A stretch of DNA of 64,000 bases. It comes from Candidatus Nitrosopumilus limneticus. GTDB taxonomy: Archaea > Thermoproteota > Nitrososphaeria > Nitrososphaerales > Nitrosopumilaceae. Made by a program: the position numbers and the translations under genes. The DNA lies in assembly GCA_022117465.1 (NCBI GenBank), contig JAHCGZ010000005.1, forward strand, positions 7,544 to 71,543, written 5' to 3'. This document shows positions 4,690 to 64,000 of this stretch, piece after piece. The stretch's first letter is position 1. The number at the start of each line of letters is the position of its first letter. Under the pieces are notes generated by a model, which made no database searches, was not told the origin of the DNA, and saw only the letters and a program-made list of their open reading frames with translations.

Positions 4690-6267
4690 TTAGAATCTCT
4701 TTTTAATTCCAACAATTACAACAGCTGGAACACCTAGATACATTCCAAGATTTAGTATGATTAATGAAATTCCAATACTCAATACTTCAGACTCTGAATT
4801 TGCATTTTCCATTAAAGATAATGTAGAAATCATTGGTGTAATTGCAAGCTTTACTGCCTCTTTGAATACAGGATTTTCTCTTTCGTAATCAGCTATTGTT
4901 GGTGAAAATGTATAGTAGAAATCATTGAATGTTTTCATGAATTGTATACCTGATTCTGTGTTTAGTAATTGGTTATCTCTAATTTCTCGAAGTAGTTGTA
5001 CTTGTGGTGCTAATTCACTACCATAAGTTGCAGTTGCAATTAGACAACCACCTCCTTCTACAGATGTAGTAATTTCTGATTGTATCTCCTCAGACTCTGA
5101 TGCAATAACCTCTGTCTCTAAAGATTTTTCAGCAGCAGCTATTGGTAAAATTCTATAAATTACACTTTCACCATGTGATACCAAGTAAAGAAATCCGTCT
5201 GGACCTCTTTCAATATCTGTAATACATCTAAAACCTGTTCCAAGCATAATTTCATCTGTAGAATCATTTTCATTAACTAAATTATCTTGCAAATCTGGAT
5301 TTGAAAATACAAATCCATCTCTACTTTGATTTAATTGAAATTTATACAAATGTCCATTATTACAATCACCTACAAAAATAGAATTATCATAATCTCTAGT
5401 TTCTTTAAAATTTCCAAAACTTATTGCTGCAGGTGCAACAACCTCTTGCCAACTAAATTTTGGATCCGCATATTGGTAATCCTCGTATACTGGTAGACTG
5501 GCAATTTCTGATTGAGTTGCAGGTCCCATTATCATCTCCCATCCACTGTTAAATTTATCTTGAATTAAATTAATTTCATCAAAATCATCATCCCCATTTT
5601 CTGTATCCCATAAATTTCCATTAACTGGATCTATTGCAAGACCAAAACTATTTCTAATTCCCATTGCATGATATGGTCCTTCAGGGTCTACACGTAAAAT
5701 TACACTAGTATCCATGTAATCTTTCGTTCCTGGTGGATAAAGCTTCTCAAGGGATTGATTTTGAAGTGGACCATATTTTCCAGTATCACCAACTACTGCA
5801 TACACTTGTCCATCTAAACCAGTAACCATAGCTCCACTGTTATGATATTCATTAGATGGTAACTCTTTAATCAAAACAGGATTTACTAATTTTTCACCAT
5901 TCCAATCATACTTGTAAATTCTATTACCTAATTGTTCTTTTTCTGAATTAATTTCTGTAAAATAAAGATAAACTGTAGACCCAACACTTGTAATACCTAG
6001 CAAACCACTTTCTCTAATTGGATTAACATCTATTTGTAAAACTGGGTCTGTTTGTATTACACCATCACGAATTAATTTAACATTGCCTAATTTTTCTACA
6101 AGTAAGATATCATCACCAACAAATGTCATTGTAGTGTATCCCCAACCAATTTCACCTGCATATACTTCAATAATCAAATTATCATCATACAATACAGGTT
6201 GAGCAAATGCACTTGGAAGCATAACTCCAAGAATTGCAACTATTGCAATGACAAATAGAGAATTCAA
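4690..6267 (-). CDS. PQQ-dependent glucose/sorbosone dehydrogenase-like beta-propeller with CFI-box-CTERM anchor
   Basis: ESGLLGI, HNSG, GIRNSFGLAIDP, WDTENG and DEINLI motifs; CFI-box C-terminus. Confidence 0.9.
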   Translation of the reverse strand: MNSLFVIAIVAILGVMLPSAFAQPVLYDDNLIIEVYAGEIGWGYTTMTFVGDDILLVEKLGNVKLIRDGVIQTDPVLQIDVNPIRESGLLGITSVGSTVYLYFTEINSEKEQLGNRIYKYDWNGEKLVNPVLIKELPSNEYHNSGAMVTGLDGQVYAVVGDTGKYGPLQNQSLEKLYPPGTKDYMDTSVILRVDPEGPYHAMGIRNSFGLAIDPVNGNLWDTENGDDDFDEINLIQDKFNSGWEMIMGPATQSEIASLPVYEDYQYADPKFSWQEVVAPAAISFGNFKETRDYDNSIFVGDCNNGHLYKFQLNQSRDGFVFSNPDLQDNLVNENDSTDEIMLGTGFRCITDIERGPDGFLYLVSHGESVIYRILPIAAAEKSLETEVIASESEEIQSEITTSVEGGGCLIATATYGSELAPQVQLLREIRDNQLLNTESGIQFMKTFNDFYYTFSPTIADYERENPVFKEAVKLAITPMISTLSLMENANSESEVLSIGISLIILNLGMYLGVPAVVIVGIKKRF

Positions 6268-6356
6268 TAATATGGTGAGTTTTTTACTATATTTAAAAAA
6301 AATTATCTTTAAAAAAATGATTAATTACTAAATACCCCACAAATTTAGATAACAGT

Positions 6357-36682: not shown

Positions 36683-36784
36683 TGATCGTTTGTTCCTAAA
36701 ATAATAAAATATATAAAAAAAATTGTTCCTAGTTAATTCGAATTTACAACAAATACTTAATTACTCTGAGAAGAGACGAGGCTT

Positions 36785-47362: not shown

Positions 47363-48013
47363 ATGTTAAGTAATTCATGGAATAAAACACAGGGAGAAAG
47401 CATATCTCATAGATTAATGAGTAAAGTAAAGCCAGATGAGCCAATAAAAAACAAGATTGATTTTGCACAAAAACAATTACAATTACAAATTTCCAAGTTA
47501 TCAGGAATCAATGAAAAATTAACAGCAAAACATGATGAATTATTTAATAAAATAGTTGATGCACAAAGAAACAACAAACCGGTTTATGCACAAGCATATG
47601 CGGGAGAATTAACTCAAGTTAGAAAAATGAAAAACATGGTCAGTGGAGCAAAATTATCAATGGAGCAAGTAAAATTAAGATTAGATACAGTTTCAGAACT
47701 TGGAGATATAGTAGTTACATTAAGTCCATGTATGTCAATAATTAAAGGATTAAGCCCATCTCTAACTGGACTTATGCCAGAAGCAGGTTTAGCAATGCAA
47801 GACTTGTCAATGATACTTGGAGATGTAATGTCAGGATCATCTGTAGGAATGAATAATACATTTACTACAAACACTGAAACCAATTCAGATACACTTGCAA
47901 TATTAGAGGAAGCTCATGGCATTATTGCAGGACAAACAGAATCAGCAATTCCAGACATTCCATCTGAATTAAGACAGCATGTATCTCAAAGAAGAACAGA
48001 TATTTTCATTTAG
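47363..48013 (+). CDS. cdvB: ESCRT-III (Snf7-like) cell division protein
   Basis: Helical hairpin, AYAGELTQVRKM, EQVKLRLDT, ILEEA; acidic Pro-containing tail. Confidence 0.85.
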   Translation: MLSNSWNKTQGESISHRLMSKVKPDEPIKNKIDFAQKQLQLQISKLSGINEKLTAKHDELFNKIVDAQRNNKPVYAQAYAGELTQVRKMKNMVSGAKLSMEQVKLRLDTVSELGDIVVTLSPCMSIIKGLSPSLTGLMPEAGLAMQDLSMILGDVMSGSSVGMNNTFTTNTETNSDTLAILEEAHGIIAGQTESAIPDIPSELRQHVSQRRTDIFI

Positions 48014-48347
48014 ATTTTTTCTTACTCTTTTGAATTAGGATTTTTTTAATTCTTGATATTGTAGGATAACTGTATCCTCTTCGTCTGTAATTTGAAATCA
48101 TCATTTTCCAGTTCTTTAATCTCCATTGAGCTTGTTCAGTTGTAACTGAATGTACTTCTTTTTGAACCATACTTTTTCGTCCAACTTTTAAAGTTCCTGC
48201 ATCCTTTGCAGTCCATCTACTTTGTGCAAATTTAAGACCACTAAGAATTTCCGTGATTGGCATGTCTTTAAAATATTCTTTTAATTTTTTTAATTCAAGA
48301 TCTGTAACTTTTGTTAAAATTGGTAGTTCTACGGTAAACTTTTCCAT
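48006..48347 (-). CDS. Basic hypothetical protein
   Basis: 113-aa ORF. Confidence 0.7.
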   Translation of the reverse strand: MEKFTVELPILTKVTDLELKKLKEYFKDMPITEILSGLKFAQSRWTAKDAGTLKVGRKSMVQKEVHSVTTEQAQWRLKNWKMMISNYRRRGYSYPTISRIKKILIQKSKKKSK

Positions 48348-60056: not shown

Positions 60057-60130
60057 GCCTCCCTAGCTCAGCGTGGTAGAGCAACCGGCTGTTAACCGGT
60101 TGGTCACCAGTTCAAGTCTGGTGGGAGGCG
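60057..60130 (+). tRNA. tRNA-Asn (GTT)
   Basis: Acceptor stem GCCTCCC/GGGAGGC; anticodon arm ACCGG-CTGTTAA-CCGGT; T loop TTCAAGT. Confidence 0.95.
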
Positions 60131-60134
60131 CTTT

Positions 60135-60162
60135 TTATTTCTATATTCGAATTTAGAAATAT
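60135..60162. repeat. 28-bp palindromic element, copy 1 (26/28)
   Basis: TTATTTCTATATTCGAATTTAGAAATAT. Confidence 0.85.
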
Positions 60163-60202
60163 TGATTTGATAGACGTTAAACATTTCACCAAAAGAAATA
60201 AT

Positions 60203-60230
60203 TTATTTCAATATTCGAATTTAGAAATAT
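60203..60230. repeat. 28-bp palindromic element, copy 2 (25/28)
   Basis: TTATTTCAATATTCGAATTTAGAAATAT; 68 bp from copy 1. Confidence 0.85.
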
Positions 60231-60317
60231 TGATCGGTTGTATGTAATTGGTGTACTCAATTAGACAACATAGATCTAATACATGATCGCTTAAGAACAA
60301 CATGCAGGAGATTTACA

Positions 60318-60566
60318 TTGGTTAGAACTAGAAGAGCCAATAGATATTGCATTGATTGTAGTGCAAGATTGGTGTATTATCCCAGGTTGTCAAACCCAAA
60401 AGCACCAAATGAACACAGAGTACTAGTGTACGCATGCCCAGATTGTACAGATGATTTTGAAAAACCAAAAATGTTCTCAATTAGACGTAATCAAGTAGAG
60501 GATCCACTTGAAACAGTAGAAGTAGAAATTACACAGTTACAAAAAAAAGTAGCTTTAGCAAAATAA
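60318..60566 (+). CDS. Zn-ribbon protein
   Basis: CIDC...CPDC; TTG start preceded by AGGAG. Confidence 0.7.
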   Translation: MVRTRRANRYCIDCSARLVYYPRLSNPKAPNEHRVLVYACPDCTDDFEKPKMFSIRRNQVEDPLETVEVEITQLQKKVALAK

Positions 60567-60570
60567 TTCC

Positions 60571-60798
60571 ATGGCCAGTTCAGAAAAAACAAGAAGTAAT
60601 TATTGGTATTTACTTCCTATATTTTTTTCAATAATCGGCGGAATTGTCGGATATTTAATTATTCAAAAAGATGATCCTCGTAAAGCAAAAAATTGTATCT
60701 ACATTGGAATTATAATGATAATAATTGGCATAATTTTTAATATCATGATATTAAATTTGGATGTTGTAAGTAGTCCAGGTTTTAACGTCAATGTATGA
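60571..60798 (+). CDS. Small 2-TM membrane protein
   Basis: WYLLPIFFSIIGGIVGY...KAKNCIYIG. Confidence 0.7.
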   Translation: MASSEKTRSNYWYLLPIFFSIIGGIVGYLIIQKDDPRKAKNCIYIGIIMIIIGIIFNIMILNLDVVSSPGFNVNV

Positions 60799-60832
60799 TT
60801 GAATTAACATATCTGCGGGCACTAGATTTACA

Positions 60833-60860
60833 ATATTTCTAAATTCGAATTTAGAAATAT
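60833..60860. repeat. 28-bp palindromic element, copy 3 (perfect palindrome)
   Basis: ATATTTCTAAATTCGAATTTAGAAATAT equals its own reverse complement. Confidence 0.9.
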
Positions 60861-60925
60861 CTCTAATTAATACTAGTGATCAAGTAGATTTAGAATCATA
60901 TAGAAGTAATTTTAAAAATCAAATT

Positions 60926-61375
60926 ATGAGCACATCAAGAATGAGAGATAATGTAGAAAGATGGCTAATTCATGAAAGTTTACCATTTGATCAAGTAAAA
61001 AATGAAGAAAATTCGTTTCAAATTTTAGTAAAGCATGCAGGGCGGTATGGAATACCTATAGAAATTTTTGAACCAAAAGCCCAATTAGGAATTCTAGTAT
61101 TAGGAGTCAAAATAGAAATGAAGAATAATCAAATTATAAGATATAGAGAGTTTAACCAGGATGAAAAAGCTAAATTTGCAAATAAAGTGTCAGATTTTTG
61201 CAACTCTATTGAAGCTATTAGTAAAATAATCACCGAAGATGGAAAGCAGAAAATTGCAATTTATGTTGTATTAGATGATAAAGAAAACATTAACCAGCAA
61301 TCAATGTTTAATGCAATAGACAGCATATCAGAAAAACATGAAAAAACATCTAGATTTTTACTAAAAACATTTTAA
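60926..61375 (+). CDS. DUF2299-like protein
   Basis: DNVERWLIHE; family resemblance recalled, not searched. Confidence 0.6.
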   Translation: MSTSRMRDNVERWLIHESLPFDQVKNEENSFQILVKHAGRYGIPIEIFEPKAQLGILVLGVKIEMKNNQIIRYREFNQDEKAKFANKVSDFCNSIEAISKIITEDGKQKIAIYVVLDDKENINQQSMFNAIDSISEKHEKTSRFLLKTF

Positions 61376-61578
61376 AAAATTAAAAAATGATAGATTAAAA
61401 CTTCAAAGACATGAACACGAGTAAAATATGTAGGGGTAAACAAGCGATTTTTGTTTGAAAAAATCAAAACACCAATAAAAAAATATTACAATGTCAAATT
61501 TTTGAAAAGTAACTAATCCAAATTATAAAAAAATTAGCATAAATTAAGAAATAACTAAAAAAAGAGTAATTTTTGAAA

Positions 61579-61754
61579 TTATGCCTAGATGTTAACCCCC
61601 CACTGCAAATAATGGAGTTTGAGCATATGGTGAAATTTTGGAAAACAAGCATTTGGATGGGGGGTTGTACAGTTATGCCTAGATACAAAAGGCAAGGGTA
61701 ATTCCACCAAGGTATCACAGCAAAAGAGGGGCAATCTTTCATAATTAGGCATAA
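61579..61754 (-). ncRNA. Candidate tandem hairpin RNA(s) ending in ATCTAGGCATAA boxes; strand inferred
   Basis: TTATGCCTAGAT at 61579 and 61673; inverted TAGGCATAA at 61746; AACCCCCCA/TGGGGGGTT stem. Confidence 0.35.
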
Positions 61755-61926
61755 AAGCTAAACCCCCAAAAATTAGACAAATTTAACGAGAAAAATTGGA
61801 ATTGAAAGAGAATTGATAGACAAAATCAGTTATTAAAAAAATAAGATGTAAGATTTTTGCAACAAATACCCCCCTATTTTGACATCAGTTTTAATAAATA
61901 ATGAATAAAAATCAAAAATTTGAATC

Positions 61927-62457
61927 ATGAAATTACGTATCAACTATATATCAAAAAAAAATGTAAATTTTATGGTTCGTTTGGGCATAGTACTAGTAAT
62001 TGGTGTAATAATTGGTTCAATGATACTTGCAAATTTCATGTATATGCAATATCAAACAAAACTCATTGAAACAAATGCAGGAGAACCTGTAATGGTAGGA
62101 CCAGTGGAATACATAATAACATTTGACGGTACGCATGAAGGAAGTAAAGATGTAAAACCAGAAAACATATTTGTGATGATTGGAATTGTTGCAAAAAATA
62201 CAGGTGATGAAAAAACACTGCTATCAGGGGGACAATTTTACTTAATTGATGAAAAAAATCAAAAACATGAAGCAGTTTTTGGTGAATTTACACCAAAAGA
62301 TCTACTTTTACAAGAATTAGAATCAAACAAGTCAATTGAAGTTACAACACAATTTGATATTCCGTTTGATGAAGATGCAAATTATAAAATTATAATCAGA
62401 CCACAAAAAGAACAATCAACTGTAGATACAGCATCAATTTGTTTAATAAATTGCTGA
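61927..62457 (+). CDS. DUF4352-like Ig-fold membrane-anchored protein
   Basis: N-terminal TM helix; KNTGDE...QFYLIDEKNQK...FDIP. Confidence 0.7.
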   Translation: MKLRINYISKKNVNFMVRLGIVLVIGVIIGSMILANFMYMQYQTKLIETNAGEPVMVGPVEYIITFDGTHEGSKDVKPENIFVMIGIVAKNTGDEKTLLSGGQFYLIDEKNQKHEAVFGEFTPKDLLLQELESNKSIEVTTQFDIPFDEDANYKIIIRPQKEQSTVDTASICLINC

Positions 62458-62558
62458 TCGATAAATTGTAAAAATCAAAAAAGTGTCAAATTTAATTATT
62501 ACTAGCGTAGTATTGTGTGACTTTTACCATATAACACTTACAATTTTAGAAAAAAGTC

Positions 62559-62858
62559 ATGGCAACATCTAAAGCCAAAAGATCTGAGGCAGCTAAGAAA
62601 GCAGCAAGAACTCGAAAGAGAAATGCAGCAGCAAAAGCAGCAGCAGCATCAAAAGCAGCAGTAAGTCGTAGAAGAAAGGCAGCAAGAAGTCGTAGTAAAT
62701 CTGCAGGTAAAAAAGCAGCTCCAAGAAGAAAGGTAGCAGCAAAACGCAGAGCCGCTCCAAAACGAAAATCTGCAGCAAAAAAAACAGCTCCAAGAAGAAA
62801 GGCAGCAGCAAAACGCAGAGCCGCTCCAAAGAGAAAGGCAGCTAAACGTAAACGTTAG
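62559..62858 (+). CDS. Highly basic K/R/A-rich histone H1/Hc1-like protein
   Basis: Almost no acidic residues; 69-bp internal duplication. Confidence 0.75.
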   Translation: MATSKAKRSEAAKKAARTRKRNAAAKAAAASKAAVSRRRKAARSRSKSAGKKAAPRRKVAAKRRAAPKRKSAAKKTAPRRKAAAKRRAAPKRKAAKRKR

Positions 62859-62902
62859 TCTGTCTATTCACCTTTTTTCTATTTTACTATACTAAATTTA
62901 TT

Positions 62903-62930
62903 ATATTTCTAAATTCGAATTTAGAAACAT
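62903..62930. repeat. 28-bp palindromic element, copy 4 (27/28)
   Basis: ATATTTCTAAATTCGAATTTAGAAACAT between convergent genes. Confidence 0.9.
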
Positions 62931-62949: not shown

Positions 62950-63372
62950 TTAATCAATCATTTTTAATTCAGGTAAAACAAAAACTTTTTCAGGTTTAAT
63001 TTTTAGAATAATTCTTTTTTCATCAGGACGTTTAAAGGGATAATGTTCACGACCCATGTATTGTTGAGTTAATTTATCTGCATGATTGTAATTAGCATCT
63101 GAAATTATTTCAACTACAATACCACGAATAGTTGTCATGTCAAGTGGATTATTATTAGAAGTAACAGAAACAGCTACACGAGGGTCACGTAAAATATTTT
63201 TATGTTTTATTCTACCCTCAGCTGTGTTTACTAAAATAAAACCATCTTGATAATTTGCCCATACGGGAGATAATTGAGGTGAGCCATCCTTCATAATTGT
63301 TGCAATAAAAACAAGATTTTGTTCTGAAAATAATTTTATCACTTTAGAGTCGATCATATTTTCATACATCAT
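62950..63372 (-). CDS. PPOX-class (pyridoxamine 5'-phosphate oxidase-like) probably F420-dependent protein
   Basis: IATIMKDGSPQLSPVW, KHKNILRDPRVAVSV. Confidence 0.87.
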   Translation of the reverse strand: MMYENMIDSKVIKLFSEQNLVFIATIMKDGSPQLSPVWANYQDGFILVNTAEGRIKHKNILRDPRVAVSVTSNNNPLDMTTIRGIVVEIISDANYNHADKLTQQYMGREHYPFKRPDEKRIILKIKPEKVFVLPELKMID

Positions 63373-63498: not shown

Positions 63499-64000
63499 TT
63501 ATTTTGCATTAGACTTTTCTAGGACGTTAGTCATTGCTCTATTCATTATCTCCATGACTAGATATTGCGAGTATTCCACAGATTTTTTACCCTTGGAGTT
63601 ACTAGTTTTAGGTCCTAAAGATTTGAGAATTTTTTCTATTTTTGTAGACGTAGTGTCAATGATTTTTGAATATGTTAAATCAAAGTTTGCAGGAGTTTGA
63701 AAATCCAATAGTTTAGTAGACGTACTATAGAATTTAGTAATAGCACCTCTAGATTCTTCAATTCTTACAATTTCAATCAATCCAGAATTTTTTAAAATTT
63801 CTAAATGATGTCTAACAGTAGTTAATGCTTTTTTAAAACCATGTTTCTTCAATGAAATAGAAATTTGATCAGCAGATAATGATTGATGGTATAAAATTTC
63901 AACAATTTTTCCTCGTGCAGGGTCTTCAATTGCACGGGCATGCTCTAAACTCGTAGCAACCGTTCGATTTACCTTAATCTCTTTTTCTAATAATGTTGAC
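63499..64000 (-). CDS. ArsR-family winged-HTH regulator, 5'-truncated by the window edge
   Basis: Frame is open to 64000: AIEDPARGKIVEILY...SADQIS...TVRHHLEILKNSGLIE. Confidence 0.87.
   Translation of the reverse strand, partial: STLLEKEIKVNRTVATSLEHARAIEDPARGKIVEILYHQSLSADQISISLKKHGFKKALTTVRHHLEILKNSGLIEIVRIEESRGAITKFYSTSTKLLDFQTPANFDLTYSKIIDTTSTKIEKILKSLGPKTSNSKGKKSVEYSQYLVMEIMNRAMTNVLEKSNAK

Follow-up and report, generated by a model that had tools for sequence, protein, structure and literature searches.

A conserved 28-bp palindrome of ammonia-oxidizing archaea and their viruses as a putative promoter-embedded operator

Several described DNA sites resemble the subject of this report, a 28-bp palindrome that occurs four times in a 64,000-nucleotide stretch of the Candidatus Nitrosopumilus limneticus genome (GenBank assembly GCA_022117465.1, contig JAHCGZ010000005.1, positions 7,544 to 71,543 of the forward strand; this whole stretch is called the window below). 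The CIRCE element is likewise a long inverted repeat that is nearly unchanged over a wide clade and present in few copies at the promoters or leaders of a few operons. However, the spacer in the 9-9-9 layout of CIRCE is not conserved, its regulon is fixed (groE, dnaK) and its binding protein, bacterial HrcA, is known, whereas in the 28-mer the center is the best conserved part, the neighboring genes vary by family and some sites face no gene. Small phages such as Bacillus phage GIL01 and CTXphi place LexA boxes of their hosts over their main promoters, and by analogy the small, regulator-less mobile genomes described below may carry a host factor site over theirs, although archaea, to our knowledge, have no LexA. 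The Xer/dif and cer/psi sites of bacteria, together with the XerA/dif sites of Thermococcales and Sulfolobus, share with the palindrome a length of 28 bp, dyad symmetry, a location opposite the origin and the presence of one copy on recombinase-less circles; the palindrome differs from them in the lack of an Xer gene, in its several copies and symmetric spacer, in being apparently embedded in promoters and in its occurrence on a linear virus. The matS sites bound by MatP are also short palindromes on the terminus side, and a small division-linked DNA-binding partner is plausible here as well; however, the 1-4 sites found here are confined to 1-15 kb, compared with the hundreds of kb over which matS sites are distributed, and both binding and contact with the divisome are putative. 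Finally, the TAGAAA arm of the palindrome and the T/A-rich bases that follow it stand at the positions of the archaeal B recognition element (BRE) and TATA box with respect to leaderless starts, whereas an ordinary BRE/TATA promoter is neither palindromic nor conserved over 28 bp.

We know of few archaeal DNA signals conserved to this degree: the same word of 22-28 bp is retained by four families, with 1-4 copies per genome at a single locus, even where the genome has 55% GC. An earlier sequence-only reading of the window had taken the palindrome for an undescribed symmetric DNA site, a view that our analysis supports, and had further proposed that it partitions accessory genes beside a tRNA gene and may be acted on by the recombinase XerA, a part that had to be abandoned. 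Judging from the sequence data presented below, we see about an even chance that the 28-mer is a promoter-embedded operator for a putative host factor, borrowed by viruses.

Copy number, conservation and symmetry of the palindrome

The source assembly (Nitrosopumilus; 1.19 Mb, 30% GC, 8 contigs) was searched with the 28-mer ATATTTCTAAATTCGAATTTAGAAATAT. The four copies listed by the sequence-only reading were recovered and are referred to as A1 (60135), A2 (60203), B (60833) and C (62903), with 2, 3, 0 and 1 mismatches, respectively. These were the only copies in the whole assembly, even when up to six mismatches were allowed, and none of 100 shuffled versions of the window contained any match to the 28-mer. 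A weight matrix built from 255 orthologous sites scored the four sites between 34 and 43 bits (A1, 37; A2, 34; B, 43.3; C, 43.5 bits), while the next-best position in the genome reached -5 bits, and no half-site carrying the TCG core was found elsewhere in the genome. The 68-nt period of A1 and A2 was confirmed, as was the intergenic position of all four copies, each of which follows a 3' end; the distance from tRNA-Asn to the first copy is 3 nt rather than the 5 nt given before. A 12-mer core that had been pointed out at 36735 is indeed present, but it lacks the TTTC/GAAA arms, and since the 10-mer AATTCGAATT is found seven times in the genome, we regard it as a chance core. Partial sites reported at 2-4.7 kb were not recovered, the best weight-matrix score in that region being -7 bits. 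As the former match has no arms and the latter region scores below zero, the genome holds exactly four sites. A dispersed repeat of the repetitive extragenic palindrome (REP) type or of the miniature inverted-repeat transposable element (MITE) type was rejected because of the four copies, the single locus and the fixed orthologous positions. As a side observation, TTCGAA, the center of the palindrome, occurs 118 times in the genome compared with about 400 times expected from base composition, a shortage in which CpG depletion and possible restriction avoidance are not separated.

The spread of the motif was determined by searching 251 genomes of the order with TTTCWWAAYTCGARTTWWGAAA, one mismatch being allowed. 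TTTC-WW-AAYTCGARTT-WW-GAAA was found in 131 of them, in 1-4 copies that were always clustered, while a reversed-pattern control gave approximately no matches. It was present in every genome of four families, designated f1 (the Nitrosopumilus family, to which the window belongs), f4, f9 and f15, and absent from the 16 other families of the order covered by this search. Judging from GC content and gene content, f9 looks Nitrosocaldus-like and f15 Nitrososphaera-like. Among the 255 sites, which come from 80 genomes, the 28-mer is nearly invariant while its flanks diverge, and the AT-rich word is intact even in a Cenarchaeum-like relative with 55% GC. Variants were seen at positions 8-9 and their mirror, with TA in f1, AA/TT in f4 and f15 and AT in f9, and hybrids of these variants within single sites are common. 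A literature search found no paper describing the motif.

The site could in principle be read as DNA or act as an RNA stem. Where mirrored positions vary, most changes affect one side only, and pairing is lost on either strand: 43 of 58 A1 sites have T.T at pair 8/21, and 25 of 76 B sites have C.A at pair 12/17. The predicted RNA hairpins range from -8.1 to -1.5 kcal/mol, that of A2 (-1.5 kcal/mol) being no better than those of shuffled sequences, while the perfect copy folds better than shuffles (z -7.4). Since the mirrored positions vary independently and the hairpins are weak, we regard the palindrome as a DNA site for a symmetric protein rather than an RNA stem, i.e., as a sequence-specific, dyad-symmetric site in which the sequence and not a structure is conserved, as the sequence-only reading had supposed. 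The half-site TTTC-WW-AAYTCG behaves as a recognition word with two tolerant positions, which a putative symmetric protein would read twice. The option that would have undone that earlier proposal, a simple terminator or REP-like hairpin, did not hold. An intrinsic terminator or structured RNA was rejected, as no stable stem is kept by compensatory change. More generally, a hairpin that terminates transcription in both directions or marks a processing point downstream of 3' ends would agree with the position of all four window copies behind a 3' end, with a T-rich tract that follows A1 in relatives and with the folding of the perfect copy; however, the stems are AU-only and weak, their mirrored positions fail to pair, only four copies exist in the genome, and divergent start codons flank the site in viruses and other families, so that we find this explanation scarcely credible.

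Position relative to start codons in chromosomes and viruses

In the window genome, TATA-like hexamers peak at -30/-28 and TAGAAA at -38 from ATG, which is the signature of leaderless promoters. In f4, f9 and f15, the palindromes are located just upstream of start codons, often between divergent genes. One of these genes, orf113, encodes a protein of 106-114 aa and is preceded by the palindrome at 26-28 nt in f4 and f9 and at 19 nt in the single f15 locus; across these three families and several metagenome lineages, the distance is about 19-38 nt. Elsewhere in the other families, the gap amounts to 34-37 nt in front of an F420-type oxidoreductase (LLM) operon or a radical S-adenosylmethionine (SAM) operon, to 51 nt before a gene for a small membrane protein and to 70-100 nt before a homolog of zn82, a zinc-ribbon gene of the window. 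In metagenome contigs, it is 31-48 nt to orf113, bioB or virus capsid-like genes, and in one metagenome lineage (L355, L367) the palindrome lies upstream of cdvB. With a gap of 28 nt, the TAGAAA arm coincides with the position of the BRE, and the TATA box begins where the 28-mer ends. A start codon is faced by 65 of 84 site sides in viral contigs, 15 of 28 in the other families and 177 of 500 in the Nitrosopumilus family. In the latter the gaps are 60-90 nt, including those of 65 and 87 nt in the window, where two sites face no gene. The palindrome thus shows the fixed position relative to TATA box and start that is expected of a promoter-embedded operator, and to judge from these distances, it appears to be the core of compact one- or two-directional promoters. 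Since its invariant center, AAYTCGARTT, goes beyond what an ordinary promoter contains, an additional reader is needed.

The same site was found outside chromosomes. A scan of viral contigs (IMG/VR) returned 51 contigs with the palindrome, 49 of which measure 4.1-4.7 kb, and 48 of these 49 are circular by terminal redundancy. Each of these elements carries exactly one copy, of the f1-type variant, and the variant carried by elements matches the host lineage. The 4.2-kb circles (L143-L193, e.g. L153) have 38-43% GC, and none of the ten open reading frames (ORFs) of a representative belongs to a Pfam or PHROG family, with neither a Rep nor an integrase among them; they encode several small membrane proteins, Gly/Ala-rich putative structural proteins, small Cys-rich proteins and a basic protein. 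From the palindrome variant, the circles are presumably viruses or plasmids of Nitrosopumilaceae. In 37 of the 48 circles, divergent ORFs flank the 28-mer, their starts being 13-29 nt, mostly 27-28 nt, away from its edges, and the bases adjoining it are TATA-like (CAT·ATTTTAT, CAT·TTAAGAT). In a spindle-shaped virus of Nitrosopumilaceae with a linear 34-kb genome, the site is placed in the main intergenic region, about 60 nt before a 23-gene operon, and in metagenome contigs from a relative of this virus and from an element with an Arg-rich capsid-like gene (L326) it precedes the start by 32-35 nt.

The elements encode no relative of the host locus proteins, proteins of the 4.2-kb elements have no homology to the window genome, and orf113 was not found in viral contigs. 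The largest protein of the 4.2-kb elements had no match in 401 f1 genomes, so no integrated copy was found there. Integration at dif in the manner of integrative mobile elements exploiting Xer (IMEX) was rejected, as no copies of the elements flanked by the site occur in the chromosome. The 4.2-kb elements also encode a 70-aa K/R-rich protein, which has no detectable homology to AKR99, a basic protein of the host locus.

Gene order and composition of the locus

The features of the window that belong to the locus or bear on its interpretation are collected in Table 1. The complete order is S8, L6, p96, tRNA-Asn, sites A1 and A2, zn82, mem75, site B, DUF2299, a variable gap, DUF4352, sometimes a basic protein, site C, PNPOx and ArsR, the last two on the strand opposite to the remaining genes. 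Seven genomes that were inspected closely, 20 short loci and 80 Nitrosopumilus/Nitrosarchaeum loci share this order. The positions of the sites are fixed as well, A1 being 5-9 nt after the tRNA gene, A2 about 90 nt before zn82, B about 65 nt before DUF2299 and C between convergent 3' ends. Given that order and content are conserved across relatives, the label "accessory" applied to this gene block by the sequence-only reading is wrong; the block is core, its order is fixed across the genus and beyond, and a comparison of 80 f1 loci revealed no rearrangement. Nitrosopelagicus-like and Cenarchaeum-like relatives keep only B and C, A1 and A2 being missing. In one relative, B is triplicated as three units of 167-168 nt between mem75 and DUF2299 (L009, G028:C154, 1333-1687), and in genome G006 the whole locus is present twice, on two contigs.

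Table 1. Coordinates in the window of the palindrome copies, the genes of their locus and the orf113-cdvB pair.
Feature	Coordinates	Strand	Remarks
tRNA-Asn (GTT)	60057..60131	+	ARAGORN; Rfam tRNA 66 bits
Site A1	60135..60162	.	faces no gene; candidate auxiliary site
Site A2	60203..60230	.	87 nt upstream of zn82 start; always followed by conserved TGATCGGTTG
zn82 leader	60231..60317	+	consensus of 77 orthologous upstream regions
zn82	60318..60566	+	82-aa CxxC...CPDC zinc-ribbon protein; 85-95% identity across the genus
mem75	60571..60798	+	small membrane protein; co-oriented with zn82
Site B	60833..60860	.	perfect palindrome; 65 nt upstream of DUF2299 start
DUF2299 gene	60926..61375	+	downstream of B; Pfam PF10061, E 2e-17
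ORF-free stretch	61376..61926	.	between B and C; inverted motifs GGGGGGTTG...GCCTAGAT...AAAGCTAAACCCCC
DUF4352 gene	61927..62457	+	membrane-anchored protein; Pfam PF11611, E 4e-11
AKR99	62559..62858	+	99-aa Lys/Arg/Ala-rich repeat protein; ends 44 nt before C
Site C	62903..62930	.	between convergent 3' ends of AKR99 and PNPOx; faces no start codon
PNPOx-like gene	62950..63372	-	FMN/F420-binding fold; Pfam PF01243, E 3e-15
ArsR-family gene	63499..64000	-	winged-helix regulator, as annotated earlier (Pfam HTH_5, E 3e-5); runs past window end; syntenic with C throughout f1 only
orf113	48006..48347	-	113 aa; C-terminal GYSYPTISRIK invariant (helix-turn-helix-like); no palindrome here
CdvB paralog	47363..48013	+	ESCRT-III-like; convergent with orf113, 3' ends overlap

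The 87-nt leader of zn82 is more conserved than the adjoining genes and is kept in the GC-rich relative that has no A sites. Its elements are TGATCGG...GATGATCG, a hairpin of ATTAGA and TCTAAT and, 7 nt ahead of the conserved TTG start codon, a GGAGG box; from this sequence it looks like a structured, perhaps autoregulatory, leader. The zn82 protein is weakly similar to ribbons of the Rpb9/TFS type, and a homolog of its gene adjoins a palindrome in f4 and f9. Sites B and C have extended flanks in common. The arms of the inverted motifs in the ORF-free stretch between them are found at 61660-61691 and 61736-61767, and the same motifs occur between B and C in other genera of f1; in the 55%-GC relative, the ORF-free stretch alone separates the two sites. 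One of its motifs, AAGCTAAACCCC, recurs in the non-coding part of many 4.2-kb circular elements. Rfam gave no match at the palindromes or in the ORF-free stretch. This stretch is part of the locus, with a putative link to the palindrome, and could represent a non-coding RNA or an origin-like element that the host has in common with the elements. AKR99 consists of 69-nt tandem repeats at the DNA level, has a histone-H1/AlgP-like composition and is detectable in some relatives only.

Operator, chromosome maintenance and other explanations

From the conservation, the copy number, the independence of the half-sites and the position relative to start codons and TATA-like sequence, we infer that the palindrome would be a two-fold symmetric, high-affinity binding site in double-stranded DNA for a host protein, built into archaeal promoters. 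Each half-site would have the layout (A/T)TRTTTC-WW-AAYTC·G, with the outer TAGAAA at the BRE and the end of the 28-mer extending into the TATA box, and where a gene follows, its leaderless start codon would stand about 28 nt from the edge. A bound dimer may control the access of TBP/TFB on one or both sides, either as a repressor or as a recruiter. In the window, zn82-mem75 would be under the control of A2, and DUF2299 with the genes downstream of it under that of B, while A1 and C, which face no gene, may be auxiliary sites that aid occupancy, e.g. by looping. Viruses and mini-elements would have copied the site into their main divergent promoter region, and since viruses carry it in their main promoter, viral expression would depend on the same host factor. 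As to the binding protein, orf113, the ArsR-family neighbor and zn82 are candidates named from gene neighborhood only. The best lead among them is orf113, a candidate self-regulated binder, which together with a cdvB paralog forms a convergent pair conserved in all four motif-bearing families.

Several observations weigh against such an operator. Site C is flanked by convergent 3' ends, and A1 immediately follows a tRNA gene; in f1, about one third of the site sides face a start codon, and they do so at 60-90 nt and not at 28 nt; in the Cenarchaeum-like genome, neither of the two remaining sites precedes a protein gene; and the genes beside the sites differ between families, so that no coherent regulon is visible. 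The favored binder, orf113, has no Pfam or PDB relative by sequence, and its AlphaFold model (pLDDT 52) is too poor for a structure search. Furthermore, an operator does not predict the location of the locus opposite the origin and at a skew switch. The only orc1/cdc6 gene of the window genome is on another contig and has two canonical boxes upstream (CACGCYTGGAKTGGAAATAAAGGGGTAA) that resemble origin recognition boxes (ORBs), namely CACGCCTGGAGTGGAAATAAAGGGGTAA and CACGCTTGGATTGGAAATAAAGGGGTAA (G000 contig C3, about 91,750-91,870); this region is likely the replication origin. The distance between cdc6/ORB and the palindrome locus amounts to 0.41-0.49 chromosome lengths in the complete or near-complete genomes examined, which represent three families, with a single exception of 0.35 in a two-contig assembly. 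In a Nitrosopelagicus-like genome with a 1.23-Mb chromosome (G201), replication-linked GC skew at third codon positions (GC3 skew) stays negative over 0-560 kb and is positive beyond 600 kb; the change point is best placed at 610 kb (top fits 575-625 kb), and the sites map to 577.0 and 577.9 kb. An origin at cdc6 is consistent with gene-strand bias in that genome and with the N. maritimus benchmark of Ori-Finder 2 (PMC4164010). In a Nitrosopumilus congener (G010, 200-1000 kb), GC3 skew is nearly absent, with a faint opposite sign, and too weak to place the terminus; GC skew on the window contig is dominated by gene orientation. In the Nitrosopelagicus-like genome the GC3 skew is strong, the presumed leading strand being C-rich. 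The palindrome itself was rejected as an ORB, since the ORB pair is found beside orc1/cdc6 on another contig and bears no likeness to it.

Two further explanations, both tied to the neighborhood of the sites, were considered. The sequence-only reading had suggested that the palindrome is specifically the operator of the ArsR-family regulator next to it, in the manner of ArsR/SmtB. Winged-helix dimers bind palindromes of such length, which suits this idea, and the gene is syntenic with C in all f1 genomes, including the reduced Nitrosopelagicus-like and Cenarchaeum-like loci. However, C is situated on the far (3') side of PNPOx-ArsR, outside their promoter, and in f4, f9 and f15, where the same core is kept, no ArsR homolog is found within 8-19 kb of the sites, so that neither placement nor co-occurrence agrees with the proposal and we rate its chance as small. 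The sites could alternatively be attachment sites or cassette boundaries of mobile DNA inserted beside tRNA-Asn, as suggested by the adjoining tRNA gene, by the virus-like style of the genes (zinc ribbon, small membrane proteins, basic protein) and by the motif that the ORF-free stretch shares with the mini-elements. The fixed order and content across f1, the lack of an integrase and of protein homology to the elements and the absence of integrated copies from 401 genomes make this very improbable; recent mobility is largely refuted, and only an ancient, now-fixed capture could fit.

Explanations based on chromosome maintenance take the location of the locus as their starting point and, taken together, form a minority view that we consider tentative, though of appreciable weight. 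According to one of them, the palindrome is a crossover site like dif or cer, at which a non-Xer host enzyme resolves dimers or multimers, and the mini-elements carry one copy as ColE1 carries cer. The location expected of dif, at the replication terminus, was indeed found: in three families the locus stands opposite the cdc6/ORB origin, in the 1.23-Mb genome it lies within about 35 kb of the GC3-skew switch, and the origin assignment is backed by the canonical ORB boxes and by the Ori-Finder 2 benchmark (PMC4164010). About fifty 4.2-kb circles lacking a recognizable Rep or integrase carry one copy each, the zn gene has opposite orientations in different families, a palindrome standing on either side of the inverted segment, and, as xerA is missing from Thaumarchaea (Cortez et al. 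2010, PMC2958812), dimer resolution in these archaea calls for another explanation. On the other hand, no tyrosine recombinase (PF00589) was detected in the window genome or in a complete congener, while the control genomes all matched, which leaves the earlier suggestion that XerA acts at the site without a gene to carry it. A serine recombinase was absent from 14 of 15 genomes searched (14 of the 15 are complete). The remaining one, a Nitrososphaera-like genome, has a small serine recombinase with a YLRVST motif inside the locus, among bio genes and palindromes (L117 (G050) 5689-6285), and another lies in the same setting on an unrelated metagenome contig (L299 166-813), both of which favor a crossover site. 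Instead of one site per chromosome, as for dif, there are 4 here and 1-4 in the 131 genomes; where 2-4 copies are present, essential-looking genes lie between them, and no rearrangement was seen in 80 f1 genomes. In addition, a crossover site would not account for the stereotyped 28-nt distance to start codons, no direction is encoded in the fully symmetric spacer, the site is also carried by a linear virus genome, and no integrated element was found in 401 genomes. The terminus location and the one-copy, recombinase-less elements thus support the dif-type interpretation offered earlier, while the lack of an Xer gene and the several copies speak against it, and we think it unlikely. According to the other explanation, the palindrome organizes the terminus or assists segregation like matS with MatP, a small protein, perhaps orf113, coupling the terminus to Cdv division, and the elements hitch-hike on it. 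Besides the terminus-side location, this is in line with the presence of the orf113-cdvB pair in all four families, with the palindrome at the orf113 promoter in three of them and upstream of cdvB in one metagenome lineage, and with the few, clustered and very strong sites. However, DNA binding by orf113 finds no support from Pfam, PDB or a fold model, orf113 of f1 has no site, the sites span 1-15 kb and do not make up a domain, the promoter geometry in viruses is unexplained, and conserved synteny alone could hold the locus opposite the origin; we therefore regard this explanation as quite improbable. Both lines converge in the doubtful proposal that Xer-less ammonia-oxidizing archaea use a symmetric 28-bp site for terminus maintenance, i.e., dimer resolution or Cdv coupling, that it is read by an undescribed protein family, with orf113 as the obvious candidate, and that tiny circular viruses carry a copy for the same service, like ColE1 cer.

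Ammonia-oxidizing archaea are among the most abundant microbes on Earth, and little is known of their gene regulation, chromosome termination and virus-host circuits. At least three unrelated kinds of virus have copied the palindrome. If the minority reading in terms of chromosome maintenance were true, the site would explain how the terminus is managed in an archaeal lineage without Xer. As a putative promoter-embedded operator, the 28-mer is a ready bait for a lineage-defining DNA-binding protein, and it may serve as a sequence tag that assigns uncultured viruses and mini-elements to these hosts.

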